From Candidatus Nomurabacteria bacterium RIFCSPLOWO2_12_FULL_40_42 (GTDB taxonomy: Bacteria; Patescibacteriota; Minisyncoccia; Phycocordibacterales; UBA9973), in NCBI GenBank assembly GCA_001786195.1, contig MFVS01000008.1:21057-85056 (forward strand): a DNA stretch of 64,000 bases, in the 5' to 3' direction. The first letter of the stretch is position 1; every line of letters begins with the position of its first letter. The notes beneath the pieces were generated by a model. It saw only the letters and a program-made list of their open reading frames with translations. It was not told the origin of the DNA and made no database searches. The position numbers and the translations under genes are program-made. Shown in pieces: positions 4,916-59,350 of the stretch.

Positions 4916-4920
4916 AGAGT

Positions 4921-6153: not shown

Positions 6154-6861
6154 CTAAGCTTCCGGCGGCAGACGATACGGATCGGCATTTTTGGGGTAAG
6201 ATTTTGGAGTCTCGGATACGGGTTCCTTTATTTCGCTTGAGGTCCTAGTAATATTTTCGATTGCATGCTCGGTTTTTACGACCGGGGTTTGCACCGTGCT
6301 GGATAATTTTTGGGTCAAGATAGGATGCGCCCTCTCTATCTCTAATTTTCCCGTCTGCATCAGCTGTGCTGAAGGCACTGCGGACAGGTCGTGAATAATT
6401 TCAATACCCGCTGACTTTAACACATGGGTATCTGTATGTATTTCTGTGTTCGCTCTCTCCTTTGAATCACCACCCCCTGCCCCCTCCTCCGAAAGGAGGG
6501 GAGGAGAACTTTTCACGAATATTTTTTTCCTCTCAGTGTTTTTAATTAATTCTTCCCTTATCTTTTTGAAGACCAGGTTATTCATTTCATTCACCAATTC
6601 ATTCGTGGCAGTCTCCGATATTTTTATCCTATTCATTAATTCCTTCGGATAGTTTTCCGCGCTTGTGAGCCCGCAAAGTAAAAGCTCCGTCTCGAGCTCG
6701 AGGTCGCCCAGTTGTTCGAAGGTGTATCCGTACTTACTTCGCAGTGACAAAATAGCCGTTTTCCAATCCACTACGGCAATAGCGTTCACTGTTTCGGTTG
6801 GTAAACTTGCTTTGGCTTCTTGTATTTTTATTTCTAATAAATCTACTGTGTCGTTGACCAT
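6154..6861 (-). CDS. hypothetical protein
   Basis: 235 aa ORF in the T4SS-like operon. Carries GC-rich insert 6481-6504 (EEGAGGGD). Confidence 0.4.
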   Translation of the reverse strand: MVNDTVDLLEIKIQEAKASLPTETVNAIAVVDWKTAILSLRSKYGYTFEQLGDLELETELLLCGLTSAENYPKELMNRIKISETATNELVNEMNNLVFKKIREELIKNTERKKIFVKSSPPLLSEEGAGGGDSKERANTEIHTDTHVLKSAGIEIIHDLSAVPSAQLMQTGKLEIERAHPILTQKLSSTVQTPVVKTEHAIENITRTSSEIKEPVSETPKSYPKNADPYRLPPEA

Positions 6862-10849: not shown

Positions 10850-11227
10850 TCATTTTCTAGCGGAACTTGCGATTTTTTGAAAAATAAGCGTTAACTCCTG
10901 GCACTCCTTCCATTGTTTTAGTAAGCCAAATTGCAGATCGGTATCACAAGTAGTCAACATTCTTAGCCAGTGCTTTGTTTCCTGCGTCTCTTTTTTGCAT
11001 ATAAATATTTTATTGATGAAATCTTTTTTAGAACTTGCGCCGTTTGCTTCCATATAGTTGGCTCCTATACTTGTGCCAGATCGAATTAGTTGAGAAATAA
11101 GAGGTCTGGTTATGGTATCTTGCTTTAACTTCTTGCACAATAATATCAAATTTTCACCAAATTTTGCAGTTCTTTCTTCTAAGTCGTAAACGCGAGAATT
11201 TGCAATTTTTGAATTTTCAGTTTTCAT
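10850..11227 (-). CDS. four-helix-bundle protein (TIGR02436 / 23S rRNA-intervening-sequence protein family; Avd homolog)
   Basis: 125 aa with the hallmark SIGANYMEANGASSKKDFINKIFICKKETQETKHWL motif. Confidence 0.8.
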   Translation of the reverse strand: MKTENSKIANSRVYDLEERTAKFGENLILLCKKLKQDTITRPLISQLIRSGTSIGANYMEANGASSKKDFINKIFICKKETQETKHWLRMLTTCDTDLQFGLLKQWKECQELTLIFQKIASSARK

Positions 11228-11316
11228 TGAATTTTTAATGTTTTAAAATTGATTCATTGGGTCTTGGTTGAAAATTGTAAATTAGAAATTGAAAATTTAT
11301 TCTGCATTTTAATTTC

Positions 11317-11631
11317 TTAAACCACCCGTATCCCAGTCTTTCTAATTTCGTAAGCAAGCGGATCAGCATTGTTTTTAAAATCTTCTTCAGTAAAACCGTG
11401 GAACTCAATACGATTATCTACCGCATCACGAAAATCCCAAAGTTTCTTATAATTCCTTCCAAAACGATTTCTAAATTTTGGAGAAATTACAGCGATATCT
11501 ATGTCGCTATCTTTATGATTTGTTCCTCTGGCTCGCGAGCCAAAAAAATATACAGAAGAAAATGGGAATTTCTCCTTTTTTAATTTTTTAGCAAATCGTC
11601 TTACAATTTTTATTGTTTCTGATTTTGACAT
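11317..11631 (-). CDS. nucleotidyltransferase (MNT-type antitoxin)
   Basis: FFGSRARGTNHKDSDIDIAVIS minimal nucleotidyltransferase motif. Overlaps the upstream HEPN gene by 22 nt. Confidence 0.75.
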   Translation of the reverse strand: MSKSETIKIVRRFAKKLKKEKFPFSSVYFFGSRARGTNHKDSDIDIAVISPKFRNRFGRNYKKLWDFRDAVDNRIEFHGFTEEDFKNNADPLAYEIRKTGIRVV

Positions 11632-12011
11632 AACGATTTATATAATTTAGTAATTTTTTCTAATTTATCCTTAGTATATTTTTCCGTACAAATTTTATAC
11701 AACTTCAATTTTTGTTCTGGATATCTAGCACGAATATTAAAAGCGCTAATAGTTTTTAATAGGTCTAATTCATTCTTGTTTAAAGAGATCTTTGTTAATT
11801 TTGCCAGCCTGATTAAATCATGAGTGAAAGGCGCTTGTTCTCCCGTTTCTTGAACGACCAGACCTTTCTGAGTTTTTTCCAAAACAATATGCCCAAAAAA
11901 CAAACTTTCTGGATAGCGCTTAATCTTAAAAAGACCGAGCATGGTGTCATAATCTCTTTTTGCAGTTATTTCCCAATATTTTACCGCTCCTCTTGTTTCT
12001 TTTTCAGTCAT
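11610..12011 (-). CDS. HEPN-domain protein (toxin partner of MNT)
   Basis: 133 aa helical protein encoded immediately upstream of and overlapping the MNT gene, the classic HEPN/MNT pair organisation. Rx4-6H-like C-terminal region. Confidence 0.65.
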   Translation of the reverse strand: MTEKETRGAVKYWEITAKRDYDTMLGLFKIKRYPESLFFGHIVLEKTQKGLVVQETGEQAPFTHDLIRLAKLTKISLNKNELDLLKTISAFNIRARYPEQKLKLYKICTEKYTKDKLEKITKLYKSLCQNQKQ

Positions 12012-15660: not shown

Positions 15661-16611
15661 TTGTGTATAATTCCCTTCATGAGGTCATTTTTCTTATTTA
15701 TTTTTATTATTTTATTATTTTATCCACAGACTCCTATAAAAGTTTTAGCGGCGGGAACTTATTCAGACTGCAATATCACTACTGTATTAAGGATGGGTTC
15801 TAAAGGGGCTGAAGTTCGATGTCTTCAGGGAAAAGTTGGGGTAGCTACCGACGGCAGTTTTGGTCCTTTGACCAATGCTGCAGTTAAGGTTTTCCAAACA
15901 AATAATAGATTAACGCCTGATGGAATAGTCGGCCCTATTTCTAGGCTGATACTTAATAGTTTTTTGGCAAATAATGGTATTTATCCGTCGGTTATCAATC
16001 ATCAAGGGTTGAAACCCATGCCTATGCCGAAAATTACAAATAACTCAACAAATGCTAGTCTTAATCCTGTGGATTTAGATCATTTTATATCTACCGTTGT
16101 AGAAGTAAATAGAAAAAATGGAAAGAGTGAACAAGAATTGGCGGTTATAGCAAATATTCTCCGAAAAACAATTACTGAGAGCAAGATTGATTACAATAAA
16201 GAATTTGAAAAGTTGCTTGTAAATGAAAGTCAACAATTAGGCATTAAATCAAATAACACTCCTCCACACCCTAGCATTTTTGATCGCATGATTAAAAAAC
16301 CCCTTTCCTTTTTAGATATTACTTCTTCTGTAGCTCAAGCTGCAACTGGGGCAGGTATAGGGTTCGGTGGCAAATTACTAGCCGCTACTCCTTGTGCCGG
16401 AAGTTGGATGTTGGAAATAACTCCTCTGCCTCCGACGAACGTAGTGCTTTTGAGTTATATTCCGGGCACTCAGGGTTTTGCAAGCTACAATATACCCTTT
16501 ACCACTAATCTACTTGGATTATATGTACCAGGTGGTAACTGTTCTTATGGTCCTGTTAATATAACAACCCAAGGCACTATTCTCCCAATGGTCGGTTCGT
16601 CTCCTCTCTAG
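15661..16611 (+). CDS. peptidoglycan-binding-domain protein
   Basis: Signal peptide. PG_binding_1-like segment GSKGAEVRCLQGKVGVATDGSFGPLTNAAVKVFQTNNRLTPDGIVGP. Confidence 0.6.
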   Translation: MCIIPFMRSFFLFIFIILLFYPQTPIKVLAAGTYSDCNITTVLRMGSKGAEVRCLQGKVGVATDGSFGPLTNAAVKVFQTNNRLTPDGIVGPISRLILNSFLANNGIYPSVINHQGLKPMPMPKITNNSTNASLNPVDLDHFISTVVEVNRKNGKSEQELAVIANILRKTITESKIDYNKEFEKLLVNESQQLGIKSNNTPPHPSIFDRMIKKPLSFLDITSSVAQAATGAGIGFGGKLLAATPCAGSWMLEITPLPPTNVVLLSYIPGTQGFASYNIPFTTNLLGLYVPGGNCSYGPVNITTQGTILPMVGSSPL

Positions 16612-17419
16612 AAGCCAAGACAATCCAGTCTTCCAGTGTTAAATCCTCCGCTCTTTTGTCTTGAAGTTGCTTTCTTTCGAGTTTTTCTGCCGAAATAACA
16701 TTTTTTAAGTTGCCAGAGAGCTTTTTTCGCTTATGGGCGAAGCCGGTTTTTACTATTTGCCAAAATTTAGTCTCGTCTATTTTATTATCTTCGAAAACTT
16801 TGCGGGAAATATTTTTTATGGCTATTATGGCCGAATTTACCTTGGGTACTGGCGAGAAATATCTTTTGTCCACCTTGGCGATCATTTTCGGCTCCCCGTA
16901 TGCTTTGACAGAAATGGAGAGGATGCTTTCTTTGCCGTTTTTGGCCAAAATTCTTGTCGCGACTTCGCGCTGAACCATGAGCACCATACCCTTTGGTTGG
17001 TTTTTTCCCGTTAAGAATTTTTTAAGTATCGCGCCGGTTATGTTGTAAGGAATATTCGCAATTACTTTGTAATTGCGTAATTCGTAATTCGTAATTTCAA
17101 ATTCCAATATGTCACCATGAACTAAATTTAGTTGTCCCGATGAAATTTCTTTTTCAAATTTTATTTTTAAAAATTCATAAAGTTCCCTGTCTTTCTCTAT
17201 CGCTAGAACCTCGCACCTAGTCTCTAGCAACTTATTTGTGAGCGCTCCCCTGCCCGGACCTATCTCTAAAATTATCTCGCCAGGTTTTATCTCCTCCGCT
17301 TCAATAATTTGCCAGAGAGCCTCTTCCGATTTTAAAAAATTTTGCCCTAAAGCCTTTTTGGCTCGGGCGAAAACATATTTGTTTTGTAGCCCCAAATGTT
17401 TTTTAGCTCTGTGTAACAT
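16577..17419 (-). CDS. rsmA: 16S rRNA (adenine1518/1519-N6)-dimethyltransferase
   Basis: LGQNFLKSEEALWQIIEAEEIKPGEIILEIGPGRGALT and ANIPYNIT motifs of KsgA/RsmA. Confidence 0.9.
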   Translation of the reverse strand: MLHRAKKHLGLQNKYVFARAKKALGQNFLKSEEALWQIIEAEEIKPGEIILEIGPGRGALTNKLLETRCEVLAIEKDRELYEFLKIKFEKEISSGQLNLVHGDILEFEITNYELRNYKVIANIPYNITGAILKKFLTGKNQPKGMVLMVQREVATRILAKNGKESILSISVKAYGEPKMIAKVDKRYFSPVPKVNSAIIAIKNISRKVFEDNKIDETKFWQIVKTGFAHKRKKLSGNLKNVISAEKLERKQLQDKRAEDLTLEDWIVLASREETNRPLGE

Positions 17420-29146: not shown

Positions 29147-31345
29147 TTATATTAATTTTTTATTATGAAACTTCTTGTGTATATCTCGCAGATGTTTGTC
29201 GGTCACATGGGTGTAGATCTGGGTGGTGCCGATGTTGGCATGGCCGAGCATGGCTTGGACAGAACGGATATCAGCACCGTTGCTTAACAAGTCGGTCGCG
29301 AAGCAATTATGAGAGATAAAGCCATCAGTAATTAAGTTTTCGTATTTATCCACGGCAAAATCATAGACCAATCCTTTATATTTTTGTTTATTAATTTTAT
29401 TAACCCGTAGCCACTGTATATTATTACTTTCAATAAGATTTTCTAAAAAATTTAACCTCTTATCTTTACAATGCGCACCTCGTAAGTATTTTATAATCTT
29501 TTTAAGCACCTCTTTTGTGGGGATAATAGAGGTAGTAGTTCCAACATATCGATATATGTCAATCCCTTCTTCTATTTTAAGATATCGAGCAAAATTATGC
29601 CATTTATTATCAAGTGAATGATAGATGTCTCGCAATATTTCTCTAACTGGAATTTTTTCTCCTTCAAATATATCGTTTGGCGTTGTTTTTTTTAAAGTTG
29701 GAATAATTTTCTTAAATAATTCTTGGTCTGGTTTGTGCAATATCTGTAAATTATACATAACATGATCAATTAATTTTCCACCAGGCAATCTGACTCTTCT
29801 TGATCTAGTGTACAGATGAGAGTCAATGCCAAGAGTAAGTAGCAACATTTGTATATCTTTGAGAAGCATTTTGCTGGTGGAGAAAAATTTTACTGATGAA
29901 CCCTCATTTCCTTCAGCATCATAATAGCCGGCTATAAAATGCGCGATCGTCGCTTTATTTTGGGAAAAAAGAGACTTCGGGACCCTTCGGAATGGCGATT
30001 TTTCTGTAATACCAATTTTTCTTAAGTATGCTATAAATGATTTTGAATAAAAATTTAAAAGATAACTATTCACACTGTTTTTTTTTATTATTGTTGGCTG
30101 ATGTTTGTATTCAGATACTATTATGTTTTTATAATGATTAACGAAAGACAGATTTTTATCCGCGATAATTACACCCCTCCTTTTTTCACTAATAGTTCCA
30201 TCTCCTAAAATATATCCAATAAGACGCCACTTATCTTTACTTTCTGATTTATTGGAACTATCCATTCTTGCTTTTCTTATGCCAGCCACGAATTGTCCAA
30301 TCTTTAGATTTTTTGCGAAAACTTCCTCGACTCCATTTATCCCAATAGTAAAAAATAGGTGATCCTTTGTGGTTGAGATTGTATATCCATTGGCTGAAAT
30401 ATTGATCAAGTCAACAAATCGATGATTAGTTTTTTGAATAATTTTGGATTTTATAGTTTTACCTTTTTTAAAGTCTACCGCGGTGATGTTTTTTGAGGAT
30501 GATTCGAACAGTTCCTTGGCTGACATTATTGTGTGTGGTAAGAAGATTAATGTGTCTGGATGAAGACAATGCCTTATCACGTGCGGAGTTACTTTTTTCG
30601 AAATACCGGCGATGGTGGCGTATCTTTTGACAATTCTTTCTATTGACCGGCGAGTCAGACCTTCATCGGTCGGTTTCTTTGAAATTTCATCAGCGATTTT
30701 TACAAACAGAGCGTCGGACATATCCTTGCGCAGGGCGAGGTAAGCTTTGACCGCAGCCTTGGCTTCATCGGAGAGGAAAACTACCCGCACTTTACCTCCT
30801 TTGCCGCGAATGGGAAATTCATCTAAACGCAAATCTAGATCATTGGTAAGCGAACAGAGTTCGGAAACCCGCAGACCGGTGGAAAAAAGCATCTCCATGA
30901 TGGCTTTATCCCGAGCTTTCCTTTCCGGATTCTTTTCTTTGTTGGGAGCATCCAAAAGCCGTTTCAATTCTTCCTGCGAAATGACATCAATTTGTCTTTC
31001 ACCGACTTTCGCTAGTTCGATTTGATCGGCAGGTAGGGAAGTGATATTTCTTTTTGCCAGAAATTTAAGAAAACTTCGCAGGGCGATCATGTAATAATTT
31101 TGAGTTTTCTTTTTTATGGTCTCTCCGGTTGCGCGATTGTTTCCGGTTGTCTGACGATTAAGCCAAATGCGAAAATCTCGGACTTTTGCATCTGTGATTT
31201 CGCTGGGGTCAGTAACTTTTGTTTGTTCGAGAAAGACGGTTAAGTAATGATCATAATTTTCTACAGTTCTAATGGCGCGACCTTTTTCGATCTCGACATA
31301 TTCCAAAAATTGAGTTTTGAGTTGTTTGAGGGAGGCCATAAACAT
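29147..31345 (-). CDS. XerC/XerD-family tyrosine recombinase interrupted by an intein
   Basis: N-terminal SAM-like domain. Catalytic LRVSEL...HVIRH|[intein]|[34 protein letters not shown]. Extein residues R, HxxRH and Y are all present once the intein is removed. Confidence 0.8.
29306..30568 (-). mobile_element. intein (421 aa) with LAGLIDADG homing-endonuclease domain inside the recombinase gene
   Basis: Begins CLHPDTLIF immediately after HVIRH. Ends ...FISHN followed by the +1 Cys of CFATDLL. Internal LAGLIDADG-like motifs [11 protein letters not shown] and [10 protein letters not shown]. Inserted exactly at the conserved HxxRH-S/C site. Confidence 0.75.
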
Positions 31346-41304: not shown

Positions 41305-41700
41305 TTGGGTAAAATCGTGAGTAGCGAAAAAATTGTCGACGGAGCCACTGGGGTGAAGGTCTATCTCAGGCGGTTGTTTGCGGACGAGACGATAACTTAT
41401 GGCGATGTGAAAGTTGTCATTTTCGAACTCGTTCAAAATGGCAATTTCCAGAAAATGTTTGGAGAGCTCGGCGAAAAGCGCCGATGTTGGAAAAACAAGG
41501 AGGAGGCGCTGGCTTTCGCCGAGCAAAATACGGAAAAGCTCGGTCCCAACAGCAACTTCTTCGAGCTTGAAGGCGGCTTCGTTGCCAACGTGAACCTCGA
41601 CGGGGACGGTCAGCCCTATGTGAACTTCGTGAGCCCGCTTTCGAACGACTCCGCTTGGTACGCCGGGTTTCAGCCTCGAGTGTTCTACCCGCAACAGTAA
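41305..41700 (+). CDS. DGR target (variable) protein, small, VR at C-terminus
   Basis: 131 aa ORF; start is either TTG 41305 or GTG 41317. Markedly GC-rich relative to its surroundings. Its last 40 codons are the variable repeat. Followed by a hairpin plus T-tract at 41727-41790. Confidence 0.6.
   Translation: MGKIVSSEKIVDGATGVKVYLRRLFADETITYGDVKVVIFELVQNGNFQKMFGELGEKRRCWKNKEEALAFAEQNTEKLGPNSNFFELEGGFVANVNLDGDGQPYVNFVSPLSNDSAWYAGFQPRVFYPQQ
41577..41697 (+). repeat. DGR variable repeat (VR)
   Basis: 119-bp repeat pairing with 42068-42186. 10 substitutions, 9 of them where the template repeat has A (template AAC codons become TTC/AGC/TCC/TAC here). Confidence 0.8.
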
Positions 41701-42067: not shown

Positions 42068-42188
42068 CTTCGTTGCCAACGTGAACCTCGACGGGGACGG
42101 TCAGCCCTATGTGAACAACGTGAACCCGCTTTCGAACGACAACACTTGGAACGCCGAGTTTCAGCGTCGAGTGTTCTACCCGAAACTA
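42068..42188 (+). repeat. DGR template repeat (TR)
   Basis: Non-coding copy of the VR with adenines at the variable positions (5 AAC codons in the VR reading frame). Preceded by a TTGACC...TATACT promoter-like sequence at about 41795-41830. Confidence 0.8.
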
Positions 42189-42201: not shown

Positions 42202-42595
42202 TCATTTATGTGGAGGAGTTTTCTTTTCGAGACCTTTCTTCCAACCACCCAGCATTCTGCCTATTTCCTGCAAGTGTTCGGATAGAGCAGAATACTTTTC
42301 ATTCGGGATGCATTTATTTCCCCAAGCTATCTGCAGAAAGAATTTTATGCCGTCGAGTTTGGAAATCGCGATGATGAGACGAGGTATTTTAGTTTCCGGC
42401 GGGAGATATATTGAAACAAAAATATTTTCCAAAAGGCCGAGGAAATAATCTTCTATCTTTCCACCTAGGGTGTAGCGGTGCGCCTTTGGAAAATCATTGT
42501 ATATTTTAAACCAAAGAGAATAGGCTGTTTTTGTCTTTAAAAGCGCTGAAGGCGCTGCGGGGGGGGGTCCCGGAAATATGAAACAATTTATTCAT
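42202..42595 (-). pseudogene. avd: Avd (accessory variability determinant; four-helix-bundle family), antisense to the TR/RT, apparently frameshifted
   Basis: Minus-strand frame encodes ...YSLWFKIYNDFPKAHRYTLGGKIEDYFLGLLENIFVSIYLPPETKIPRLIIAISKLDGIKFFLQIAWGNKCIPNEKYSALSEHLQEIGRMLGGWKKGLEKK, matching the TIGR02436/Avd consensus. There is no in-frame ATG/GTG/TTG upstream. ATG 42593-42595 is in the -1 frame and terminates at 42506, implying a frameshift near the A5/G9 homopolymers. Confidence 0.5.
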
Positions 42596-43588
42596 ACTTA
42601 CGATAGTACCATAACAATAGAAAAACTGCTCAAGGCATGGCAGGAATTCGTGCGCGACAAGAAAAACAAAAAAGATGTGATTTTATTCCAGGCCAAGCTG
42701 ATGGATAACATATTCGATCTTTTTAATGATCTTAAAAACAAAACTTACAAGCACGGCGGTTATATCGCTTTTAATATATCAGATCCTAAACCTAGGCAAA
42801 TACACAAGGCAACAGTTCGAGATAGGTTGCTGCATCATTTGATATATCGAGAACTTTACGAACATTTTAATTCAAAATTTATCCACGACTCATATTCCTG
42901 CCGATTAAACAAAGGAACCCACAAAGCGATCAACAGATTCCGCGATTTTTTCCGAAAAGTTTCCAAAAATCACGCAAAGACGTGCTTTGTTCTCAAGTGC
43001 GATATCAAGAAATTCTTTGCCAACATTGATCATCAAATTTTAAAGCAAATTTTAGAAAAACACATCGAAGACAAAAATATTATCTGGCTTCTTTCACAAG
43101 TTATAAATAGTTTTTATACTCAACTAAATACTAAAAACTCTGCGATAGCAGAAAGTTTAGTAAAAGGTTTGCCATTAGGGAATCTAACTTCCCAACTTCT
43201 GGTAAATGTTTACATGAATGAATTTGACCAGTTTATGAAAAGAGAATTGAAAGTAAGGTATTATATACGATACGCAGACGATTTTGTAATATTGAGTGAT
43301 AATAAAAATTATCTTGAAGACTTACTTCTAAAGGTCTCTAGCTTCTTAGAAAAAGAATTAAAATTACAATTACACCCAGACAAAGTTTTTATGAAAACTT
43401 TCGCTTCCGGTGTTGATTTTCTAGGCTGGGTACATTTTTCAAAGTATAGAGTTTTGAGGACGAGTACAAAAAGAAAGATGTTGAGGAATCTTGAAAAAAA
43501 TTTTAAAGAAGAGTCACGACAGTCATATTTAGGAATGTTGAAACACGGGAATGCTTATAAGCTCAAAAGTGAGATTGAAAACTTATAA
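42578..43588 (+). CDS. DGR reverse transcriptase
   Basis: 336 aa. Motif 2 VLKCDIKKFFANIDHQIL. Motif 4 GLPLGNLTSQLLVNVYM, the DGR-diagnostic [ILV]GxxxSQ in place of QGxxSP. Motif 5 RYADDFVIL. Confidence 0.9.
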   Translation: MKQFIHTYDSTITIEKLLKAWQEFVRDKKNKKDVILFQAKLMDNIFDLFNDLKNKTYKHGGYIAFNISDPKPRQIHKATVRDRLLHHLIYRELYEHFNSKFIHDSYSCRLNKGTHKAINRFRDFFRKVSKNHAKTCFVLKCDIKKFFANIDHQILKQILEKHIEDKNIIWLLSQVINSFYTQLNTKNSAIAESLVKGLPLGNLTSQLLVNVYMNEFDQFMKRELKVRYYIRYADDFVILSDNKNYLEDLLLKVSSFLEKELKLQLHPDKVFMKTFASGVDFLGWVHFSKYRVLRTSTKRKMLRNLEKNFKEESRQSYLGMLKHGNAYKLKSEIENL

Positions 43589-44111: not shown

Positions 44112-45797
44112 ATGTCTCTATTACTTGATGTTTTGCTTGAAAAAAGAAGTATTACGTCTGACCAGAAAGATATTTTTTTGAACCCGGATTACAAACGCGA
44201 TTTGCACGACCCTTTTTTAATGCGAGATATGGAAAAAGCTTGTGTTCGAATTTTTGAAGCGATCGAGAATAAAGAAAAAATAATTATTTACGCGGACTAT
44301 GATTGTGACGGTATACCCGGCGCCGTTATTTTAAATGACTTATTTATTTTTTTAGGATATAAAAATTACGAAGTCTATATTCCCAAAAGAAATTCGGAGG
44401 GCTATGGGCTGAATTTGGATGCGATAAAACAATTTGCCGATTCTGGAGTCAAACTTATTATTACCATTGACCTCGGTATTACGGCGGTAGCCGAGGTGGC
44501 GCAAGCGGAAGTGGATGGTATTGACGTGATTATTACCGATCACCACTTGCCTCGCCAAAGCGTCATCAGCGGCGGGCTTGCCTTCGACCTGCCTAGGGCT
44601 TATGCCATCTTGAATCCCAAGACTGATGAGTATTCAGAAAAAATGTTATGCGGGGCCGGAGTGGTTTTTAAATTTGCCCAGGGTTTCCTAAAAAAATACG
44701 GCGAATATTTTAAGGTTAAAGTTGGCGCGGAAAAATGGATGCTGGATATGGCGGGTCTGGCCACGCTCTCAGACATGGTGCCGCTCACGGGTGAGAATCG
44801 AGCCATTGCCTATTTCGGAATGAAAGTTCTGAAAAAATCTCCCAGGCCGGGATTGCAAAAACTTTTGGCTAAAATGAACATCGAGCAGAAATATTTATCC
44901 GCGGACGATATTGGTTTTATGGTAACTCCGCGGCTTAATGCTGCTTCCCGGATGGATGACCCGATGCGGGCTTTTGAGCTTCTTTCCACCGAGGATGAAG
45001 CCAAAGGGGGAATGCTAGCCGACCATCTGTCTAAAATAAATGATGAAAGAAAGAATATCGTTAAAGGAATAATGCGGGAGATAAATAAAAATTTCGAGAA
45101 ACGCAAACTTGAAAAAGTGATCGTGATCGGCAATCCTGCTTGGCTGGTGGGAGTCTTGGGACTTGTAGCTGGGAAGATTTGCGATGAATATGCAAAGCCG
45201 GTTTTTGTCTGGGGCAAGGACGAGAATGACTGCATCAAAGGGTCTTGCCGCAGCGACGGCTCGGTATCGGTGGTGGAGCTTATGACAGCAACCCGGGAAT
45301 CATTCATAGATTTTGGCGGACATGAGCTCGCGGGTGGGTTCACTGTTCACACCGAAAAAATTCATTTTTTGGAAGAAGCATTGTCGGTTTCTTTTAATCA
45401 AATTACCACCGCGGCCTCTGGTCACCTCCCCTCAATTGAGAAGGGGGAAGGGGGTGGTGATATGAAATTATCTCTTTCCGATATCAATCTGAATACTTGG
45501 CGACAAATAGAGAAACTCGAGCCTTTTGGTTTAGGCAATCCAAAGCCAATCTTTCTGTTTGAGGGCATAAAGATAGAGAAAATAAAAAAGTTTGGCAAAA
45601 ATGGTTCGGGCGAACATCTGGAAATTATTTTTTCTGACGCTTCCGGCAGAGCCAAGGCTGTTTCTTTTTTTTCCAGCGTTGACTCTTTTAAAAATACTTT
45701 GTCGGAGGGGCTTGGCGTGAATTTGCTCGCCACTTTTGATTTGTCTCGCTTTCGCGGCAGGGAAGAGTTAAGATTAAGAATTACTGATATAATATAG
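44112..45797 (+). CDS. recJ: single-stranded-DNA-specific exonuclease RecJ
   Basis: DHH motifs ADYDCDGIPGAVIL, IITIDLGIT, VIITDHHLP; DHHA1 C-terminal domain. Start set at ATG 44112. GC-rich palindromic insert at 45422-45460. Confidence 0.85.
   Translation: MSLLLDVLLEKRSITSDQKDIFLNPDYKRDLHDPFLMRDMEKACVRIFEAIENKEKIIIYADYDCDGIPGAVILNDLFIFLGYKNYEVYIPKRNSEGYGLNLDAIKQFADSGVKLIITIDLGITAVAEVAQAEVDGIDVIITDHHLPRQSVISGGLAFDLPRAYAILNPKTDEYSEKMLCGAGVVFKFAQGFLKKYGEYFKVKVGAEKWMLDMAGLATLSDMVPLTGENRAIAYFGMKVLKKSPRPGLQKLLAKMNIEQKYLSADDIGFMVTPRLNAASRMDDPMRAFELLSTEDEAKGGMLADHLSKINDERKNIVKGIMREINKNFEKRKLEKVIVIGNPAWLVGVLGLVAGKICDEYAKPVFVWGKDENDCIKGSCRSDGSVSVVELMTATRESFIDFGGHELAGGFTVHTEKIHFLEEALSVSFNQITTAASGHLPSIEKGEGGGDMKLSLSDINLNTWRQIEKLEPFGLGNPKPIFLFEGIKIEKIKKFGKNGSGEHLEIIFSDASGRAKAVSFFSSVDSFKNTLSEGLGVNLLATFDLSRFRGREELRLRITDII
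45422..45460. repeat. GC-rich palindromic in-frame insert in recJ
   Basis: TCACCTCCCC-TCAATTGA-GAAGGGGGAAGGGGGTGGTGA encoding HLPSIEKGEGGGD. Confidence 0.55.
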
Positions 45798-45801
45798 GGC
45801 A

Positions 45802-46335
45802 ATGAAAGATAAAATTGTAGTTTATACGGACGGAGCAGCTAAGAGAAATCCTGGGAACGCTGGCTGGGGAGCTGTTTTCATAATTCACCCCTACCCGGCC
45901 TCCCCCTTGATAAGGGGGAGGAGTCAGGAGGGGGTCTTCGAAATTGGCGGGGGAGTAGAACACGCTACCAATAATATTATGGAACTAACTGCGCCGATAG
46001 AGGCATTGAAATATTTAAAGACACTTTTCCCTAGTGAAGTCCCTAGGGATATCACTAGGGAAAGAAATATAGAAATTATTTCTGATTCTAAATATGTGAT
46101 TTTGGGAATCACTGAGTGGATTTTTAATTGGCAAAAAAATAATTGGCGCAATGCCAACAAAAAACCTGTTTTGAATCGCGAGCTTTGGGAGGAGCTATAC
46201 AAACTGACCGAAGAGTTAAAGCCAAAATGGACGTATGTAAAAGGACATAATGAAAATAAATACAATGACCGCGCTGACTTGATTGCCACAAGTTTTGCAG
46301 AGGGCGCTCAAGTGGAACTTAAAAGTAAAAAATAA
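45802..46335 (+). CDS. rnhA: ribonuclease HI
   Basis: VVYTDGAAKRNPGNAGWGAV...TNNIMELTAPIEAL...ISDSKYV...KGHNENKYNDRADLIA. GC-rich palindromic insert at 45899-45921. Confidence 0.85.
   Translation: MKDKIVVYTDGAAKRNPGNAGWGAVFIIHPYPASPLIRGRSQEGVFEIGGGVEHATNNIMELTAPIEALKYLKTLFPSEVPRDITRERNIEIISDSKYVILGITEWIFNWQKNNWRNANKKPVLNRELWEELYKLTEELKPKWTYVKGHNENKYNDRADLIATSFAEGAQVELKSKK
45899..45921. repeat. GC-rich palindromic in-frame insert in rnhA
   Basis: CCTCCCCCTT-gat-AAGGGGGAGG, a perfect 10+3+10 palindrome inside an extended imperfect palindrome 45887-45940. Encodes ...SPLIRGRSQEGVFEIGGGVE. Confidence 0.6.
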
Positions 46336-46353: not shown

Positions 46354-47859
46354 ATGCGAGATAGGATTTTTTATGCGATATGTTTTGGTTTTATCTTTGG
46401 GGTGTTTTTGCGCTCTTTTTTATTTTTCAATTTATATTTTGCTGTTTGGGTCGCAGTGGTCAGTGTGGCCTTAGCTTTATTTTTCTCTCTAATTTCTAAA
46501 AACAAGTGGGGCATCATATTCTCCATTTTTATTTTAACTTTTTGCTTAGGAATTTTCAGATTTCATGCGGCAGATGTTCCATCACCTAGTGTTTTCGAAT
46601 CGCAGGTGGGTCAAAAAGTATTTTTCACTGGAAAAATTATAGATGAACCGGATATAAGGGAAAATAATCAAAAACTGACTATTGAAGCGCAAATTGGACA
46701 AGACCCACGTCAGGGCGGGGCAAGCAAAACTAAAATTTTAGTCACTGTAAATTTCGGTCAGGATTTTAAATACGGCGACGAGGTAAAATTTTCGGGAAAA
46801 TTACAGAAACCGGAAAATTTTATGACGGATCAGGGTAAAAAGTTTGATTATGTAAATTATTTAAGGAAGGACGGGATTTATTACGTAATGAATTATGTAA
46901 ATGTCGAGGTCATCTCAGGGGGGAATGGCAACATAATTAAAAGCGCGCTGTTTTTCGTAAAAGAAAAGTTCTTAGCGAAAATGGATTTTGCTATAAAAAC
47001 TCCTGAATCGCTTCTCATGGGTGGTTTGATATTGGGCGAGCGTTCTTCTTTTAATAATGAAATGCGAGAGAAGTTTATAAATACTGGCACGATCCATATC
47101 GTGGCTCTCTCGGGATACAATGTGACAATCGTCGCCGAATGGATTATGAAACTATTTTCTGGAGTGCCTTATGTAGCTAAAAATTTCGGCATTGGGATGG
47201 GTATTTTCACTATTTTGCTTTTTGTGTTGATGACGGGTGGGAGTTCGACTGCGATCCGGGCGGGGATAATGGCGACCTTAGCGCTAATTGCCCGCGCGAC
47301 CGGGAGAAATTATGACGTCGCGCGGGCTCTCATGCTCGCCGGGGTGGGAATGATTTTACTAAATCCTTTTGTGCTAGTTTACGACGTATCTTTTCAGCTT
47401 TCTTTTATCGCGACAGTGGCGGTAATATTTTTTACCCCTAGAATTGAAAAATATTTTTTATGGGCGCCAGATGTTTGCAAACTGCGGGACATCATTTCCG
47501 TCTCCTGTGCCGCCTATATTTTTGTCTTGCCATTTATCCTCTACAAAATGGGCAATCTTTCTCTAGTCGCCCTGCCGGCCAATATTTTAATTCTACCGTT
47601 TATCCCGTTTACCATGTTGCTCGGGTTTCTGACTGGTTTTGTCGGGCTTATTTCATATATATTGGCTGTACCCATAGGCTATATTTCCTATCTCATGCTT
47701 CATTATGAACTCGGAGTGATAAATTTTTTCTCCAGTCTGCCCTTTGCCGCTTTTTCTGTTCCGAATTTTCCGCTCATTCTAACAACTTTAATTTACATCT
47801 ATTTTATTTATAGACTTTTTGGCAGAAATATAAAGAGTTTCTTTACTGCGTCCCAATAA
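46354..47859 (+). CDS. comEC: ComEC/Rec2 competence channel (membrane domain only)
   Basis: About 10 TM helices. ALSGYNVTIVA and FQLSFIATVAV are competence-domain signatures. No beta-lactamase domain in this ORF. Confidence 0.75.
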   Translation: MRDRIFYAICFGFIFGVFLRSFLFFNLYFAVWVAVVSVALALFFSLISKNKWGIIFSIFILTFCLGIFRFHAADVPSPSVFESQVGQKVFFTGKIIDEPDIRENNQKLTIEAQIGQDPRQGGASKTKILVTVNFGQDFKYGDEVKFSGKLQKPENFMTDQGKKFDYVNYLRKDGIYYVMNYVNVEVISGGNGNIIKSALFFVKEKFLAKMDFAIKTPESLLMGGLILGERSSFNNEMREKFINTGTIHIVALSGYNVTIVAEWIMKLFSGVPYVAKNFGIGMGIFTILLFVLMTGGSSTAIRAGIMATLALIARATGRNYDVARALMLAGVGMILLNPFVLVYDVSFQLSFIATVAVIFFTPRIEKYFLWAPDVCKLRDIISVSCAAYIFVLPFILYKMGNLSLVALPANILILPFIPFTMLLGFLTGFVGLISYILAVPIGYISYLMLHYELGVINFFSSLPFAAFSVPNFPLILTTLIYIYFIYRLFGRNIKSFFTASQ

Positions 47860-55810: not shown

Positions 55811-57604
55811 ATGCAAGATAAAATTAAAAATTTAATCAAAGACGCTCTACAAAATCTCGGTATTGAAGCGAGCGAGATTGCCTTGGAACACCCGGCGGAT
55901 TTGAAGATGGGAGACTATTCGACGAATGTCGCCATGGCCATCGCCAAAAATGTCAAAAGTAACCCAAAAGATCTCGCCAAAAAAATAGTTACTGAAATAT
56001 TGAGGTTAAATTTGGATAAGTATATCGAAAAAGTGGAAGTCGCCGGCGCGGGCTTCATAAATTTTTATTTGTCGCGTAAATTTTTCGGCAATAGCATTGA
56101 AGAAATTTTAAATCAAGGAGAAAATGTCGGCAAGAATGAAATTTTGGCCAAGGAAAAAACAAAAGAAAAAATAATGGTTGAATATACCGATCCGAATCCT
56201 TTCAAACCCTTCCATATTGGCCACTTGATGACGAACGCTATTGGTGAATCGGTGGCGAGAATTCTGGAACACTCCGGCGCCGAGGTAACACGCGCCAATT
56301 ATCAAGGCGATATCGGTTTGCATGTGGCCAAGGCTATCTATGGGCTTTTGAAAAACCCCCTCCGCCCAGAAAATTCTGGGCACCTCCCCCTTGGCAAGGT
56401 GGAGGAAGGTGGGGGTGAATCTGTATCAGTATTGGCTCAGCATATCGGCAAAGCTTACGCAGAAGGCGCTTTGCTTTATGAAACTGATGAAGCAGTTAAA
56501 GCCGAAATAGATGAAATAAATAAAAAAATATATAACAGAGGGGATGAAAAAATAAATAAAATATATGATTGGGGTTTCAAGGTGACGATGGATGCCTTCG
56601 AAGATCTTTATAAATTACTCGGCACCAAATTTGATTTCTATTTTTTGGAGAGCCAGATGGCGCCGATTGGGGAAGAGATCGTGCGCGCGAATATGGGAAA
56701 AGCCAGAGATCCTGAGCATGGTCGAAGGATATTTGAAGAGTCCGATGGAGCAGTGGTGTTCAAGGCTGAAAAGCATGATCCAAAACTTCATACCCGAGTT
56801 TTCATCACGAGCGGAGGCTTACCGACTTACGAGACCAAGGAGCTAGGATTGACCGAAGATAAATTTCGAACCGAACCAAATCTAGATCTTTCGATTATCG
56901 TCACCGCCAATGAACAAATGGACTATATGAAAGTCGTCGCCAAGGCTGTTTCTCTAATCAAACCGGAACACGAGAAAAAAATGTTTCATATTTCGCACGG
57001 CATGATGCGGCTCTCGGGAGGTAAAATGAGTTCCAGGAAGGGCAATGTAGTGACTGGAGAATCCTTGATTCGCGATACGATTGCTTTAATTGGAGAAAAA
57101 ATGCGGGAGCGTGATTGGGACGAAAAGGAGAAAAGTAAGGTGGCCGAGATGGTTGGCGTGGCGGCGATAAAATATTCGATTCTGCGTTCAGCCTCTGGGA
57201 GCGATATCGTCTACAACGTCGAAGAATCAATTTCCGTCGATGGAGATTCCGGCCCGTATTTGCAATATTCCTTTGCCCGCGCCAATTCGGTTTTAGAAAA
57301 AGCGAAAGTAGAAAATATCTTGCCGGACCCGCATGCATTTCCGGGAGAGGTTTTTGAAGTGGAAAAATTGTTGTATAAATTTCCGGAAGTTGTCTTGCGC
57401 TCTGCCAAGGAATATGAGCCGCACTATATTGCCAACTATTTAATCGAAGTCGCCCGGGTCTTTAATAGTTTTTATGGCAATAATTTAATTGTGAGTAAAG
57501 AAGATAAAAATTCGGGGTATAAAGTGGCTCTAACTTTTGCCTTTTCTTTTGTGATGAAAACTGGTTTGTATCTCTTGGGTATTCAAGCGCCAGCGAAAAT
57601 GTAA
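55811..57604 (+). CDS. argS: arginine--tRNA ligase
   Basis: DPNPFKPFHIGHLMTNAIGE HIGH region, DALR anticodon-binding C-terminus. Start at ATG 55811. GC-rich insert at 56381-56417 (HLPLGKVEEGGGES). Confidence 0.9.
   Translation: MQDKIKNLIKDALQNLGIEASEIALEHPADLKMGDYSTNVAMAIAKNVKSNPKDLAKKIVTEILRLNLDKYIEKVEVAGAGFINFYLSRKFFGNSIEEILNQGENVGKNEILAKEKTKEKIMVEYTDPNPFKPFHIGHLMTNAIGESVARILEHSGAEVTRANYQGDIGLHVAKAIYGLLKNPLRPENSGHLPLGKVEEGGGESVSVLAQHIGKAYAEGALLYETDEAVKAEIDEINKKIYNRGDEKINKIYDWGFKVTMDAFEDLYKLLGTKFDFYFLESQMAPIGEEIVRANMGKARDPEHGRRIFEESDGAVVFKAEKHDPKLHTRVFITSGGLPTYETKELGLTEDKFRTEPNLDLSIIVTANEQMDYMKVVAKAVSLIKPEHEKKMFHISHGMMRLSGGKMSSRKGNVVTGESLIRDTIALIGEKMRERDWDEKEKSKVAEMVGVAAIKYSILRSASGSDIVYNVEESISVDGDSGPYLQYSFARANSVLEKAKVENILPDPHAFPGEVFEVEKLLYKFPEVVLRSAKEYEPHYIANYLIEVARVFNSFYGNNLIVSKEDKNSGYKVALTFAFSFVMKTGLYLLGIQAPAKM
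56381..56417. repeat. GC-rich palindromic in-frame insert in argS
   Basis: CACCTCCCCCTTGGCAAGGTGGAGGAAGGTGGGGGTG, preceded by the CCCAGAAAATTCTGGG palindrome. Encodes HLPLGKVEEGGGES. Confidence 0.55.
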
Positions 57605-57607: not shown

Positions 57608-59350
57608 ATGACCCAAGATCAGGCTTTAAATATTTTAAAAACCGGTGCCAATGTTTTTCTAACTGGCGAGCCGGGGGCGGGGAAGACGCATACCATAAAT
57701 AATTTTGTAAATTATCTGCGCGACTGCGATATTGAGCCGGCGATCACAGCTTCGACCGGTATCGCAGCGACGCATATCGGCGGAATGACGATTCATTCTT
57801 GGAGCGGCATTGGCATTCGGACCAAACTCGACAAATATGACTTGGATAAAATCGCGAGCAGTGAATATATTGTAAAGCGGGTCAATCGAACCAAGGTTTT
57901 GATTATTGATGAGATTTCCATGCTCTCGACGAATATGCTCGAGATGGTGGATCTGGTTTGCCGGGAAATCAGACAGAGCAGCGAGCCCTTTGGTGGTATT
58001 CAAATTATTCTGGTTGGCGATTTTTTCCAGCTGCCACCGATTACTAAAAGAGACGAAAGTGTTAAACAAAATTCACTGATTGCGGAAGTCGGATTTCCGC
58101 GTTTTGCTTACCATTTCGGAGCTTGGGAGCGCTCGCGGCTCGTAGTGTGCTATTTGAGCGAACAACACCGCCAGGATGATGCGGATTTTCTTTCCGTGCT
58201 TTCGGGCATCCGGGCGAACAATGTTTCGGAAATGCATCGGAATCATCTCCAGACTCGGCATATTCGCACGGATAAGCTTCCAGAAAACATTCAGAATATT
58301 ACCAAACTTTTTTCGCACAATGTGGATGTGGATCGGGTCAACAACGAAGAGCTAGCCAAATTGAATACCGAAAGGAAATTATTCCGAATGTCCGGGAGTG
58401 GAAATGAAAAAGTAGTCGAGACTCTCAAGAAGGGCTGCTTGTCGCCGGAGAATTTGGAACTCAAAATCGGCGCGGTGGTGATGTGCACCAAGAATAATCC
58501 GAAAGAGAGGTTTGTAAATGGCACTCTCGGCATTGTGGTTGGTTACGAAGAATTTAGCGGCTATCCGATTATCAAAACTCGAAATGGACGGAGCATCAAG
58601 GTGGCGCCGATGGATTGGAGCGTGGAAGAAAACGGCAAAATTCGGGCGCAGATTACCCAGGTGCCGCTCCGGCTGGCCTGGGCGATCACCGTGCACAAGA
58701 GCCAGGGGATGAGCATGGACGCCGCGGTGATGGATTTGTCGCAAGTGTTTGAGTTTGGGCAGGGGTATGTGGCGCTCTCGCGGGTGCGCCGGCTCTCGGG
58801 CCTGTATCTTCTCGGCATAAATGCTCACGCGCTCAAAGTGCATCCGGAAATTTTGCAAAAAGATATCGATTTTAAAAATAAATCAGATGAAGCGGTAAAA
58901 GTTTTCGGTAAAATTTTGGAAGCGGATTTAAAAAAGATGCATGAAAGTTTTGTGGTGACTTGCGGAGGAAAGATCAAAACTAAATCCGGAGGAAAACACC
59001 ACTTGGAGGCAAGGCCTCCAAGTGGTGTAAATATAAAAAAAGAAAGAAGATGGGAACAAACTCTATCCTTCATACAAGATGGTAAAAGTATTTTAGAAGT
59101 AGCACATTTGCGTGGTAGAAAAGAAGAAACAATTATAGAACATCTAGAAGAATTAAAAAAGATTGGAAAGTTGACGGAAGAAACGAAGAATATTTTAAAG
59201 TTAAAAATTACCAAAGAGCAAGAAGATCAAATAAACAAAGTTCGTTTATCTATGCTTTTGCTGGGTGCGGAGCTACTTAAACCAATATATGATCACTTTG
59301 GTGGGAAAATTTCATATGAGAATATTCGTTTGGCTCGACTTTTGTCCTAA
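57608..59350 (+). CDS. Pif1/RecD-like SF1 DNA helicase
   Basis: VFLTGEPGAGKTHTI Walker A, LIIDEISML Walker B, ITVHKSQGM motif. C-terminal helical extension. Confidence 0.7.
   Translation: MTQDQALNILKTGANVFLTGEPGAGKTHTINNFVNYLRDCDIEPAITASTGIAATHIGGMTIHSWSGIGIRTKLDKYDLDKIASSEYIVKRVNRTKVLIIDEISMLSTNMLEMVDLVCREIRQSSEPFGGIQIILVGDFFQLPPITKRDESVKQNSLIAEVGFPRFAYHFGAWERSRLVVCYLSEQHRQDDADFLSVLSGIRANNVSEMHRNHLQTRHIRTDKLPENIQNITKLFSHNVDVDRVNNEELAKLNTERKLFRMSGSGNEKVVETLKKGCLSPENLELKIGAVVMCTKNNPKERFVNGTLGIVVGYEEFSGYPIIKTRNGRSIKVAPMDWSVEENGKIRAQITQVPLRLAWAITVHKSQGMSMDAAVMDLSQVFEFGQGYVALSRVRRLSGLYLLGINAHALKVHPEILQKDIDFKNKSDEAVKVFGKILEADLKKMHESFVVTCGGKIKTKSGGKHHLEARPPSGVNIKKERRWEQTLSFIQDGKSILEVAHLRGRKEETIIEHLEELKKIGKLTEETKNILKLKITKEQEDQINKVRLSMLLLGAELLKPIYDHFGGKISYENIRLARLLS

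Follow-up and report, generated by a model that had tools for sequence, protein, structure and literature searches.

The very AT-rich, compact mitochondrial genomes of fungi, algae and sponges carry GC-rich palindromes throughout (GC clusters, or hairpin elements), and these are sometimes tolerated in frame inside protein genes, as in yeast var1. Protein-coding palindromic repeats have so far been treated as a peculiarity of Rickettsia. The palindromic repeats of that genus, known as RPEs (Ogata et al. 2000 Science 290:347; Ogata et al. 2002 Genome Res 12:808; summarised in PMC10969869), measure about 100–150 bp, and the summarising review also covers prokaryotic MITEs such as Correia, ERIC, Chunjie and Nezha. 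For Patescibacteria (CPR), no earlier description of such in-frame palindromic elements, or of REPIN/RAYT systems, was found in the literature, and a full-text search by sequence words of the elements described below returned unrelated papers only.

The window analysed here, a stretch of 64,000 nt from the genome of a Candidatus Nomurabacteria (Patescibacteria/CPR; Rifle aquifer, groundwater), carries GC-rich nested palindromes inside at least six of its genes. We regard these, with a probability of about 0.8, as members of a superfamily of small GC-rich nested-palindromic repeats, selfish in the manner of REP elements and MITEs, that multiply within and between Patescibacteria genomes.

Palindromes within genes of the window

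A sequence-only reading had proposed six loci at which a palindrome of a C-run and a G-run sits in coding sequence without breaking it. Letters and reading frames agree with this at all six (6/6): every window copy lies within an open reading frame, and the frame is intact. The loci were thus rightly placed, but the extents assigned to them were all too narrow, the interval 45899–45921 in rnhA covering the inner hairpin only. The element-bearing sequence is the same in five independent assemblies (100% identity), so that the elements are not an assembly artefact; a sixth assembly differs by one base, and DNA identity drops to about 74% for the next relative (L131). The motif is far commoner than composition predicts: CCTCCCC-N(2–14)-GGGGAGG has 3 matches in the window vs 0 in 100 dinucleotide shuffles, while the 9-mer CACCTCCCC occurs four times on the plus strand where about 0.07 would be expected from composition (our own arithmetic). 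Hairpins of the window include 6 GC-rich stems of at least 8 bp (1.0 in simulation) and 9 perfect stems of at least 10 bp (3.2 in simulation). A partial motif at 3058–3075, at the C-terminus of a VirB4/TraG-like ATPase, has no palindromic partner and was left out of the counts.

The elements form at least two related families, A and B, alongside other palindrome families. Family A has the core CCTCCCCTCC..GGAGGAGGGGGNAGGGGGTGGTGA and encodes the peptide PPLLVEEGAGGGD; family B spans 47–53 nt and reads ACCCCTACCCNGCCTCCCCC-loop-GGGGGAGG-(AGAAAG or a small hairpin)-GAGGGGGT, its window copy being the one in rnhA. The elements of the window are as follows.

935 to 965, minus strand: short family-A-like hairpin in ORF1 (a gene running off the left end of the window), CCTCCCC-TTG-GGGGAGG followed by TGGGGAGGGG; peptide SPPLGGGGEGS.
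6467 to 6508, minus strand: family-A core in the hypothetical gene 6154–6861, sense strand TTCTCCTCCCCTCCTTTCGGAGGAGGGGGCAGGGGGTGGTGAT; peptide SPPLLSEEGAGGGDS.
7024 to 7112, minus strand: composite element of about 89 nt in the paralogous gene 6881–7519; peptide NSPLEEYPLGGGGQYIHPGPENLRATPQEGN.
About 45405 to 45461, plus strand: diverged family-A element in the recJ linker, CCTCCCCTC-aattgagaa-GGGGGAAGGGGGTGGTGAT; peptide GHLPSIEKGEGGGD.
45886 to 45936, plus strand: canonical family-B element in rnhA, 51 nt, residues 29–45 being HPYPASPLIRGRSQEGV.
46026 to 46063, plus strand: second, unrelated palindromic insert in rnhA, TTTCCCTAGTGA-14 nt-TCACTAGGGAAA; peptide FPSEVPRDITRE.
About 56352 to 56419, plus strand: nested palindrome with a three-way junction in argS, encoding about PLRPENSGHLPLGKVEEGGGE.

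With a C-run in one arm and a G-run in the other, the elements translate into Pro/Leu/Ser and then Gly/Glu/Arg, whence the PL...GGGG(E/D) signature. Peptides spanning the junctions of inserts would include ...FIIHPYPASPLIR..., ...GHLPLGK... and PPLLVEEGAGGGD.

The copies differ in how well they fold and how closely they match the family models. The family-B element of rnhA, an inner hairpin CCTCCCCCTT-gat-AAGGGGGAGG within an outer stem ACCCC/GGGGT, matches the family covariance model with 73 bits (E = 6e-16), and the second rnhA insert, missed by the sequence-only reading, is a perfect 12-bp stem with a fold z of −5.07. In argS an outer stem ACCCCC/GGGGGT holds the hairpins GCCCAGAA..TTCTGGGC and CCTCC.CCTT..AAGG.GGAGG; its strong DNA fold (−21.1 kcal/mol, z = −4.84) goes with a full-length match to the family model on the minus strand (E = 0.026). 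The composite element at 7024–7112, with an outer stem CCTCTTGAGG/CCTCAAGAGG enclosing two inner hairpins, folds comparably (−22.1 kcal/mol, z = −4.78) and has the hairpin GCCCAGAAAAT..GGGC in common with that of argS. The core at 6467–6508 fits the metagenome family-A pattern with a fold z of −2.0. The ORF1 copy fits the CCTCCCC..GGGGAGG pattern, its match to the family model being weak (E = 0.5), as is its fold (z = −1.6 and −1.4); a second C/G-run block adjoins it at 878–930. The recJ element likewise has a weak fold (z = −0.5) and a weak model match (E = 7.6), and its outer complementarity ACCACC/GGTGGT may be partly host sequence.

Insertion versus ancestry

Comparison with orthologues reveals lineage-specific insertion in RNase HI, ArgRS, RecJ and two hypothetical families, the latter three being polymorphic. 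That the segments are lineage-specific and not ancestral, as had been surmised, follows from close orthologues of all five proteins (70–80% identity) that lack them. The family-B element of rnhA is a clean 39-nt presence/absence with respect to orthologues L006 and L007, and the segment is absent from RNase HI chains in the PDB (solved structures, unrelated lineages). ArgRS shows a net gain of 13 aa over three orthologues. L008 has the recJ element, L006 and L007 do not, and at the same site metagenome contigs L177 and L184 hold a canonical PPLLVEEGAGGGD copy. Among homologues of the hypothetical gene 6154–6861, the linker occurs with or without the 6467–6508 element and related ones (alignment A10), while the composite element of its paralogue is present in two homologues (P0241, P0242) and absent in most, those lacking it ending near residue 135 or having other linkers; a related copy occurs at CPR locus L024. 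The reverse situation is found in KsgA, for which the window has the empty site and L166 and related contigs have about 28 extra residues. As a control, the comEC palindrome and the PGK peptide EEGGGNS proved conserved in all orthologues, which shows that hairpins are not scored as insertions indiscriminately. One earlier assignment did not survive this comparison: the peptide FEIGGGVE, taken for inserted in RNase HI, is native, EIGG being conserved in 40/40 aligned homologues, insert-free ones included. A further candidate, a gene fusion mediated by the palindrome at 58996–59028, was discarded, because the extra C-terminal part of the PIF1-like helicase is an ordinary HTH_40 domain with no match to the downstream ORF of L006.

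RNase HI also illustrates repeated use of the same loops. The 17-aa family-B peptide is found in two different RNase HI loops in other lineages, with patchy occupancy on the tree, and the second variable loop, site of the 46026–46063 insert, differs in length among orthologues and holds family-B or other palindromes in other lineages. Mapping onto structure, which had been suggested from the letters, places both insert sites in low-confidence loops of an otherwise confident AF2 model, with pLDDT below 50 at residues 34–40, between strands b2 and b3, and at residues 79–86. The inserts are predicted to occupy disordered surface loops.

No strain-level insertion polymorphism was seen among the six assemblies (identical or one base off) that would indicate current activity of the elements.

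Families A and B beyond the window

Near-identical copies in other genes and in intergenic DNA elsewhere bear out the idea that the family was copied into unrelated genes. The 38-nt core of family A recurs nearly unchanged in groundwater metagenomes, in KsgA, PurD, MurB, UvrC, RecJ, an unknown protein and five intergenic sites. At the intergenic sites it is one module of a four-hairpin composite of about 100 nt with TIR-like ends and with stop codons in all six frames. Composite forms overall measure about 89–105 nt and single units 38–53 nt. Family B occurs both within and between genes; numerous CPR genomes have it, and versions with longer stems are found in Chloroflexi, Geomonas and Bacteroidales. 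The exact 18-mer matches listed exceed 120; among these, the full architecture is present in 32, about 12 of them in long ORFs and the rest intergenic. Several genomes are multi-copy (L090 has 3–4 copies within 4 kb), and in L175 a B-like element is nested in the hairpin loop of another element. The TA...TA that flanks subfamily 1 of family B may represent a duplication or may belong to the palindrome itself. No match was found in a protein database for the 17-aa family-B peptide, searched as a concatemer, and among 2.9 million viral contigs family B had one partial match only, with no sign of phage carriage. The family-A right-arm pattern was set aside in these contigs, where it matches an unrelated conserved phage sequence.

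Such occurrences bear upon the notion that the elements are flexible Gly/Pro/Glu linkers recombined for a useful peptide, the DNA palindrome being incidental. The family-A coding insertions, at least eight of them independent, all use a single frame of the three that are open (PPLL-EEG-GGGD), and the inserts do fall in loops and linkers, both as this notion would have it. The same DNA is nevertheless found between genes with stops in all six frames, family-B coding copies use three different frames or orientations and yield unrelated peptides, and conservation tracks base pairing rather than codons: the hairpin structure is kept, 98% of cells being paired, and compensatory changes are seen at the outermost pair and at the two pairs nearest the loop. 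We therefore consider selection for the peptide extremely improbable as the origin of the elements, while recognising that random insertion with avoidance of stops accounts only in part for the single-frame use of family A.

A more serious alternative, still unlikely in our estimation, is that the elements are primarily functional RNA or DNA modules and the coding copies by-products; they would be mRNA-stabilising or translation-modulating hairpins, with SD-like GGAGG and anti-SD-like CCUCC, kept for the control of neighbouring genes. The placement of intergenic CPR copies is precise (1–4 nt past a stop codon and 9–13 nt ahead of the next ATG), a conserved 5' UTR that follows a promoter-like TTGACA/TATACT contains one copy, loops of the UUCG or GAAA type are frequent in the small hairpins, and the family-B core is kept across phyla while the distal stems differ in length with compensatory changes. 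Yet intergenic spacers in CPR genomes are tiny, so that any intergenic insert abuts genes; copies stand in both orientations relative to genes, and no consistent class of neighbouring gene was seen. Rfam holds no matching family: in the window nothing but tRNAs passes the gathering threshold, and eight element-bearing loci gave no meaningful match at E ≤ 1. Regulation would hardly explain coding copies in many unrelated enzymes and would in any case not conflict with a mobile origin, the two being accepted together for REP elements.

Origin and spread

According to the selfish-repeat explanation that we favour, an element would be copied to new sites, probably by an enzyme acting in trans on a single strand that forms a hairpin. 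Many copies would land inside genes because these genomes are almost entirely coding, and selection would then retain only those that add a multiple of three bases, are free of stops in the frame used and lie in surface loops or linkers. The description of the elements as in-frame-inserting, offered by the sequence-only reading, is right in that the frame is kept in coding copies; it is better read as survival only when in frame, and intergenic copies exist too. What the comparisons show is the repeat family itself, its lineage-specific presence or absence, repeated use of the same loops, and copies both within genes and between them; active transposition and the enzyme responsible are what we infer from this pattern, as any gain to the host would be.

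A comparison of filled and empty alleles, only about 70–80% identical and with variable host loops, revealed no direct repeat that could be taken for a target-site duplication. Pfam analysis of the window ORFs found no transposase, RAYT or other candidate mobilising gene, and none of 120 fetched 8-kb loci contained an autonomous version with element ends enclosing an ORF. That neither a target duplication nor a transposase was found would suit an origin in situ, in which slippage or intra-strand template switching at C-runs and G-runs, with homogenisation by gene conversion, dispenses with transposition. Orthologous loops that are sometimes reverse complements (TTGATAA in the window, TTATCAA in L008), and one orthologous site at which the element differs by an entire small hairpin amid flanks about 95% identical, could be read likewise. 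Independent events of this kind cannot, however, produce 38–51-nt elements whose asymmetric, non-palindromic spacers are near-identical at many unrelated loci and genomes, and gene conversion presupposes a copy already at each site. We hold an in-situ origin to be very unlikely.

Loop flip-flop as evidence of a hairpin intermediate was rejected, since most reverse-complement pairs differ by 1–2 bases and simple substitutions, for instance from CG to TG/CA, would account for them; inversion is suggested by the window/L008 pair alone, with 3 differences. A link to the diversity-generating retroelement of the window was likewise dismissed, its TR/VR pair being unrelated to the palindromes.

Doubtful, though worth stating, is a further reading in which the family-B core (CCCCUACCCNGCCUCCCCC ... 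GGGGGAGG ... GGAGGGGGU) is a self-propagating structured element with its own mobilisation machinery, extending across CPR, Chloroflexi, Geomonas and Bacteroidales. Around this core the distal stems are variable and the third hairpin optional. Were this so, the machinery might be a new HUH or RT-linked system, or the distribution might stem from exchange between CPR episymbionts and their hosts, and the mechanism of insertion, not selection alone, would be behind two features: family A being read in coding DNA strictly from one frame of the sense strand, and elements entering the hairpin loops of others.

Implications

An independent and abundant analogue in CPR suggests that protein-coding palindromes arise generally wherever selfish hairpin repeats enter genomes that are very compact and AT-rich. 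The elements offer a concrete source for many lineage-specific loops and length differences of CPR proteins; they inflate apparent protein divergence, give essential enzymes 'low-complexity' stretches rich in Pro and Gly, and can mislead gene calling, alignment and structure prediction in these organisms. A core common to unrelated phyla would help to trace how DNA passes between CPR bacteria and the rest of the community, and the abundance of copies makes it practicable to look for the mobilising enzyme by phylogenetic profiling.

Comparison with known systems

The GC clusters of mitochondria are organellar and different in sequence, and their likeness to the present elements is one of analogy only. 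With MITEs the elements have in common a small size class, insertion into operons without disruption, and transcripts that would form stable stem-loops; the intergenic family-A composite ends in TIR-like sequences (TTCCTCCCCTCCTT...AAGGAGGGGAAG), family B is itself a nested inverted repeat, and some MITEs, ERIC among them, are occasionally met in frame inside genes. Typical MITEs, however, are AT-rich, have target-site duplications and can be traced to a parent IS; none of these three features was found here.

REP and REPIN elements are alike in being short imperfect palindromes (20–50 nt), often nested or in inverted doublets, of high copy number and located between operon genes directly after stop codons. 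A weak resemblance, read from the letters, is that the family-B tetranucleotide CTAC/GTAG adjoins the foot of a hairpin; on the modelled strand CTAC lies 5' of the inner hairpin, equivalent to GTAG 3' on the other, whereas the canonical GTAG is 5'. REPs are moreover extragenic by definition, whereas all window copies and many others are intragenic, and the cognate RAYT (an IS200/IS605-like Y1 HUH protein) was not found by Pfam among the ORFs of the 64-kb window.

The closest parallel is with RPEs, a likeness that the sequence-only reading had proposed and that our comparisons uphold. Both systems are multi-copy palindromic repeat families of small AT-rich genomes, present in intergenic DNA and in frame in unrelated housekeeping genes (here RNase HI, ArgRS, RecJ, KsgA, PurD, MurB and UvrC) whose orthologues lack them; in each, a peptide characteristic of the family is read from a consistent frame, and tolerance at surface positions is presumed. 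The added remark that the present elements are much shorter is accurate for units of 38–53 nt, which are nonetheless often single modules of composites of about 50–105 nt; with units of this size and composite forms of about 89–105 nt, the elements are shorter than RPEs, at about 100–150 bp. The present elements differ further in their extremely GC-rich C- and G-runs, in Pro/Gly-rich peptides predicted to be disordered, and in a family-B core common to several phyla. Their host belongs to the Patescibacteria and that of RPEs to the Alphaproteobacteria, so that the likeness is one of features, with descent not expected, and the elements are best read as a putative functional analogue of the RPE.

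Palindromic inserts in window genes

Palindromes of paired C- and G-runs, which the sequence-only reading had placed at six loci, are present in the window sequence at all six, each lying within an ORF whose frame it keeps:

935-965, candidate insert, first ORF, which runs off the window's left end
6467-6508, within hypothetical gene 6154-6861
7024-7112, within hypothetical gene 6881-7519
45405-45461, recJ
45886-45936, rnhA
56352-56419, argS

Their abundance exceeds what composition would yield, as had been supposed. The motif CCTCCCC-N(2-14)-GGGGAGG occurs three times in the window and in none of 100 dinucleotide shuffles, and CACCTCCCC has four copies on one window strand against a compositional prediction of about 0.07. 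Six GC-rich hairpin stems are 8 bp or longer (1.0 in simulation), and nine perfect stems are 10 bp or longer (3.2 in simulation). Not every such feature is an insert: comEC has a perfect 11-bp palindrome (47290-47327) that every orthologue shares and that is therefore ordinary coding sequence, and the PGK peptide GKYEEGGGNS is native. The peptide FEIGGGVE, initially taken for the RNase HI insert, is likewise native, the true insert being HPYPASPLIRGRSQEGV at residues 29-45. Two further palindromes with perfect 15-bp stems may have been inserted recently and belong to other families, no additional copy of either being found in the window or any fetched locus:

2500-2533, within coding sequence, DNA fold z = -8.1
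58996-59028, within coding sequence, in the linker between PIF1 helicase core and HTH_40, DNA fold z = -8.6

The window organism is a member of the Patescibacteria (CPR), with a window G+C of 40%, and identical contigs appear in several independently assembled groundwater/Rifle aquifer datasets (e.g., GCA_001786885.1 contig MFUD01000011.1). Because its relatives keep the gene order TIM-PGK-(DGR)-HIT-RecJ-RNase HI-ComEC-SOD-...-dUTPase-ArgRS, orthologues are available for direct comparison, and for RNase HI, ArgRS and RecJ alike some orthologues lack the segment, in agreement with the proposed lineage-specific insertion. Among 40 RNase HI homologues (66–99% identical), many are missing a 13–17-residue segment between GAVFII and FEIGG, which reads (Y/H)P(Y/H)P(A/T)SPL-RGRS-EGV where present, and solved RNase HI chains (Chlorobium, E. 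coli) are also without it. At the DNA level, rnhA of the window and of relatives L008 and L009 is 39 bases longer than in L006 and L007, with well-aligned flanks. The RecJ element occupies a variable linker that is filled in the window and L008, empty in L006 and L007, and holds other palindromes in L009, while window ArgRS carries 13 residues more than three orthologues. The hypothetical genes 6154-6861 and 6881-7519 are paralogues; in their homologues some linkers contain the same element or a related one and others do not.

The rnhA-type family

The rnhA element (family B) has a nested palindromic architecture: (t/g/c)ACCCCTACCC(A/G)GCCTCCCCC, a 6–8-nt loop, GGGGGAGG, a spacer and GAGGGGGT(a/c/g). 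The spacer is either AGAAAG or a short hairpin, for example TGCCGAAGGCG. Searching one genome per species with the 18 specified left-arm bases returned more than 120 matching stretches, a lower bound, and the full architecture is found in 32 of the matches listed. High-GC left-arm matches lacking a partner arm look like chance. A covariance model built from 19 copies identified approximately 45 non-redundant copies in 69 loci, occurring in Nomurabacteria, Paceibacterota, Saccharibacteria and Minisyncoccia; in copies from Chloroflexi/Anaerolineae, Geomonas and Bacteroidales both the inner stems and the third hairpin are longer. Several genomes are multi-copy, one 8-kb Nomurabacteria locus holding three to four.

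About 12 of the 32 full-architecture copies among the matches listed lie inside long ORFs, in three different frames or orientations, and encode unrelated peptides (YPYPASPY.GGG.., PLPGLPLTKGEEKGGG, TPSLLLPLYRGRLGRG), and therefore the conserved entity is the DNA rather than the peptide. In a MAFFT alignment 98% of cells are paired. Compensatory changes affect the outermost pair, which is T-A or G-C, along with both loop-proximal pairs, positions that also tell two subfamilies apart. Intergenic CPR copies typically fill the spacer, beginning 1–4 nt past a stop codon and ending 9–13 nt ahead of the next start. This precise placement, together with an SD-like GGAGG that pairs with CCUCC and loops of the UUCG/GAAA type, makes a regulatory RNA role possible for intergenic copies, one compatible with a mobile origin.

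Spacer-filling copies were seen in loci L025, L030, L054, L067, L082, L086, L090, L111 and L113, where the preceding stop is often TAA or TAG followed by TA, the next start is ATG, and the G-rich 3' arm occupies the expected ribosome-binding-site position. An orthologous 5'-UTR site is shared by two close CPR genomes:

L028, 5560-6010, minus strand, family-B 5'-UTR site
L050, 4255-4710, family-B 5'-UTR site

These copies differ by the entire third (small) hairpin within flanks approximately 95% identical. The order at both is a perfect DnaA-box-like TTATCCACA, a promoter-like TTGACA-N17-TATACT, the element and a small ORF. In a Chloroflexia locus (L044, 5217-5749) an intergenic 158-nt unit, present in 3.4 tandem copies, includes a family-B-like element whose inner stem is long. 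The 7-nt loop of the rnhA inner hairpin is TTGATAA in the window (45899-45921) and its exact reverse complement, TTATCAA, in L008 (10101-10123), the asymmetric outer parts having the same orientation; this could be an inversion of the hairpin tip, though in this single case three substitutions would account for it too.

Variable loops of RNase HI

An AlphaFold2 model of window RNase HI (mean pLDDT 82) has the expected order of strands and helices, and pLDDT falls below 50 solely at residues 34–40, between strands b2 and b3, and 79–86, between helix A and strand b4, both within the two palindromic inserts. The model fits inserts that would be tolerated as probably disordered surface loops. Both loops are patchily occupied across a neighbour-joining tree; in other lineages the second carries the same 17-residue family-B peptide, and both elsewhere hold other palindrome families, such as QNSGEPRVL (back-translated to CAAAATTCCGGGGAACCCCGGGTTTTG).

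Peptides at the second loop or third site of RNase HI homologues
P0003, P0052, P0110: NLSQPSPGQERAKGEV
P0010, P0018, P0025: MSKTVFDI
P0071, P0103: SARQDLAE
P0056, P0073: PARVVLAG
P0073, P0110: TCPPKRRE

These peptides, most of them known as protein alone, also look palindromic when back-translated (e.g., ATGTCAAAAAC.GTTTTTGACAT). Hairpins thus seem to enter genes in frame quite generally in these genomes, though at only a handful of permissive 'hot' loops. RNase HI site 1 reads NYELRITNY in P0112 and P0082, and P0139 has TNYELRIDNEK; a peptide of this type is typical of the translated heptanucleotide tandem repeat (ATTACGA)n, and its presence in loops of unrelated CPR proteins points to an additional class of in-frame repeat insert.

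The recJ-type family and composite elements

The recJ and 6467-6508 copies (family A), and more loosely those of argS and the first ORF, have in common CCTCCCCTC...GGGGGNAGGGGGTGGTGA. Metagenomes searched with this motif gave 21 contigs (32–47% G+C), across all of which the 38-nt core is nearly identical. In-frame hosts are KsgA/RsmA, PurD, MurB, UvrC, an unknown protein and RecJ, where the insertion site matches that of the window copy. Intergenic copies, found at five sites, form a composite of four consecutive hairpins (~93–105 nt); its two ends, TTCCTCCCCTCCTT...AAGGAGGGGAAG, are complementary, and none of its frames is free of stop codons. KsgA copies hold approximately 96 nt of this composite, one allele with a B-like element nested within the loop of hairpin 2, and the same position is empty in window KsgA (16577-17419). 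The argS and 7024-7112 elements share a small hairpin, GCCCAGAAAAT..GGGC, and fold as three-way junctions (z near -4.8); the covariance model matches the argS element over its full length (E = 0.026).

Coding copies of family A invariably read PPLL(V/L/M/D)(E/K)(E/G)G(A/V)GGGD. At least eight independent coding insertions use one frame, three of the six frames of the coding composite being open. This single-frame use is most simply read as selection for a soluble, acidic, Gly-rich loop, a mechanistic bias being possible.

Other features of the window

The stretches 1-6030 and 10850-12011, towards the window's left end, encode a T4SS-like cluster (pilin/TrbC-like, VirB4/TraG-like ATPase, PrgI) followed by an ORF6N protein, a homologue of the 23S rRNA intervening-sequence protein and a HEPN/nucleotidyltransferase pair. 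Cumulative GC skew is lowest at approximately 20 kb, adjoining a tRNA cluster (21.6–23.2 kb) where gene orientation switches. An intein bearing a LAGLIDADG homing-endonuclease domain splits a minus-strand tyrosine recombinase (29147-31345; Pfam Phage_integrase with an N-terminal SAM-like domain). The window also holds a complete diversity-generating retroelement (DGR):

41577-41695, VR
42068-42186, TR
~42202-42432, minus strand, bAvd
42578-43588, RT

Its 119-nt repeats differ at 10 positions, nine of them adenines in the RT-adjoining copy; a 131-aa ORF (41305-41700) has its C-terminus encoded by the variable copy, and a nine-G run (42559-42567) directly precedes the RT gene.

Mobility and relation to known systems

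A repeat family with subfamilies, found at unrelated genic and intergenic loci, present in a lineage-specific manner, capable of nesting and maintaining its hairpins, behaves as REP/MITE-like selfish DNA. Phage carriage is unlikely, and no strain-level insertion polymorphism was found among the near-identical assemblies compared. Although alike in form, REP/REPIN sequences are defined by a strictly extragenic location, whereas CPR copies also lie inside ORFs, and by the Y1-type transposase RAYT; neither RAYT nor another transposase was found among ORFs of the 64-kb window. MITEs, also alike in form, are defined by target duplications and a parent IS, yet no target duplication was recognisable between filled and empty sites, and no parent IS, or element ends enclosing an ORF, in the fetched loci. 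In-frame palindromic repeats had not been described from CPR bacteria in the searchable literature. They are of interest for how CPR genomes evolve and are annotated, and potentially the more novel threads are the frame bias of family A and the family-B core shared across phyla. The suggested resemblance to Rickettsia palindromic elements (RPEs) holds at the level of function, as the described behaviour of RPEs (review PMC10969869) matches that of the CPR elements. Since their host phylum is unrelated and their units, made up of C- and G-runs, are shorter, the CPR elements are a functional analogue of RPEs and not members of the RPE family.
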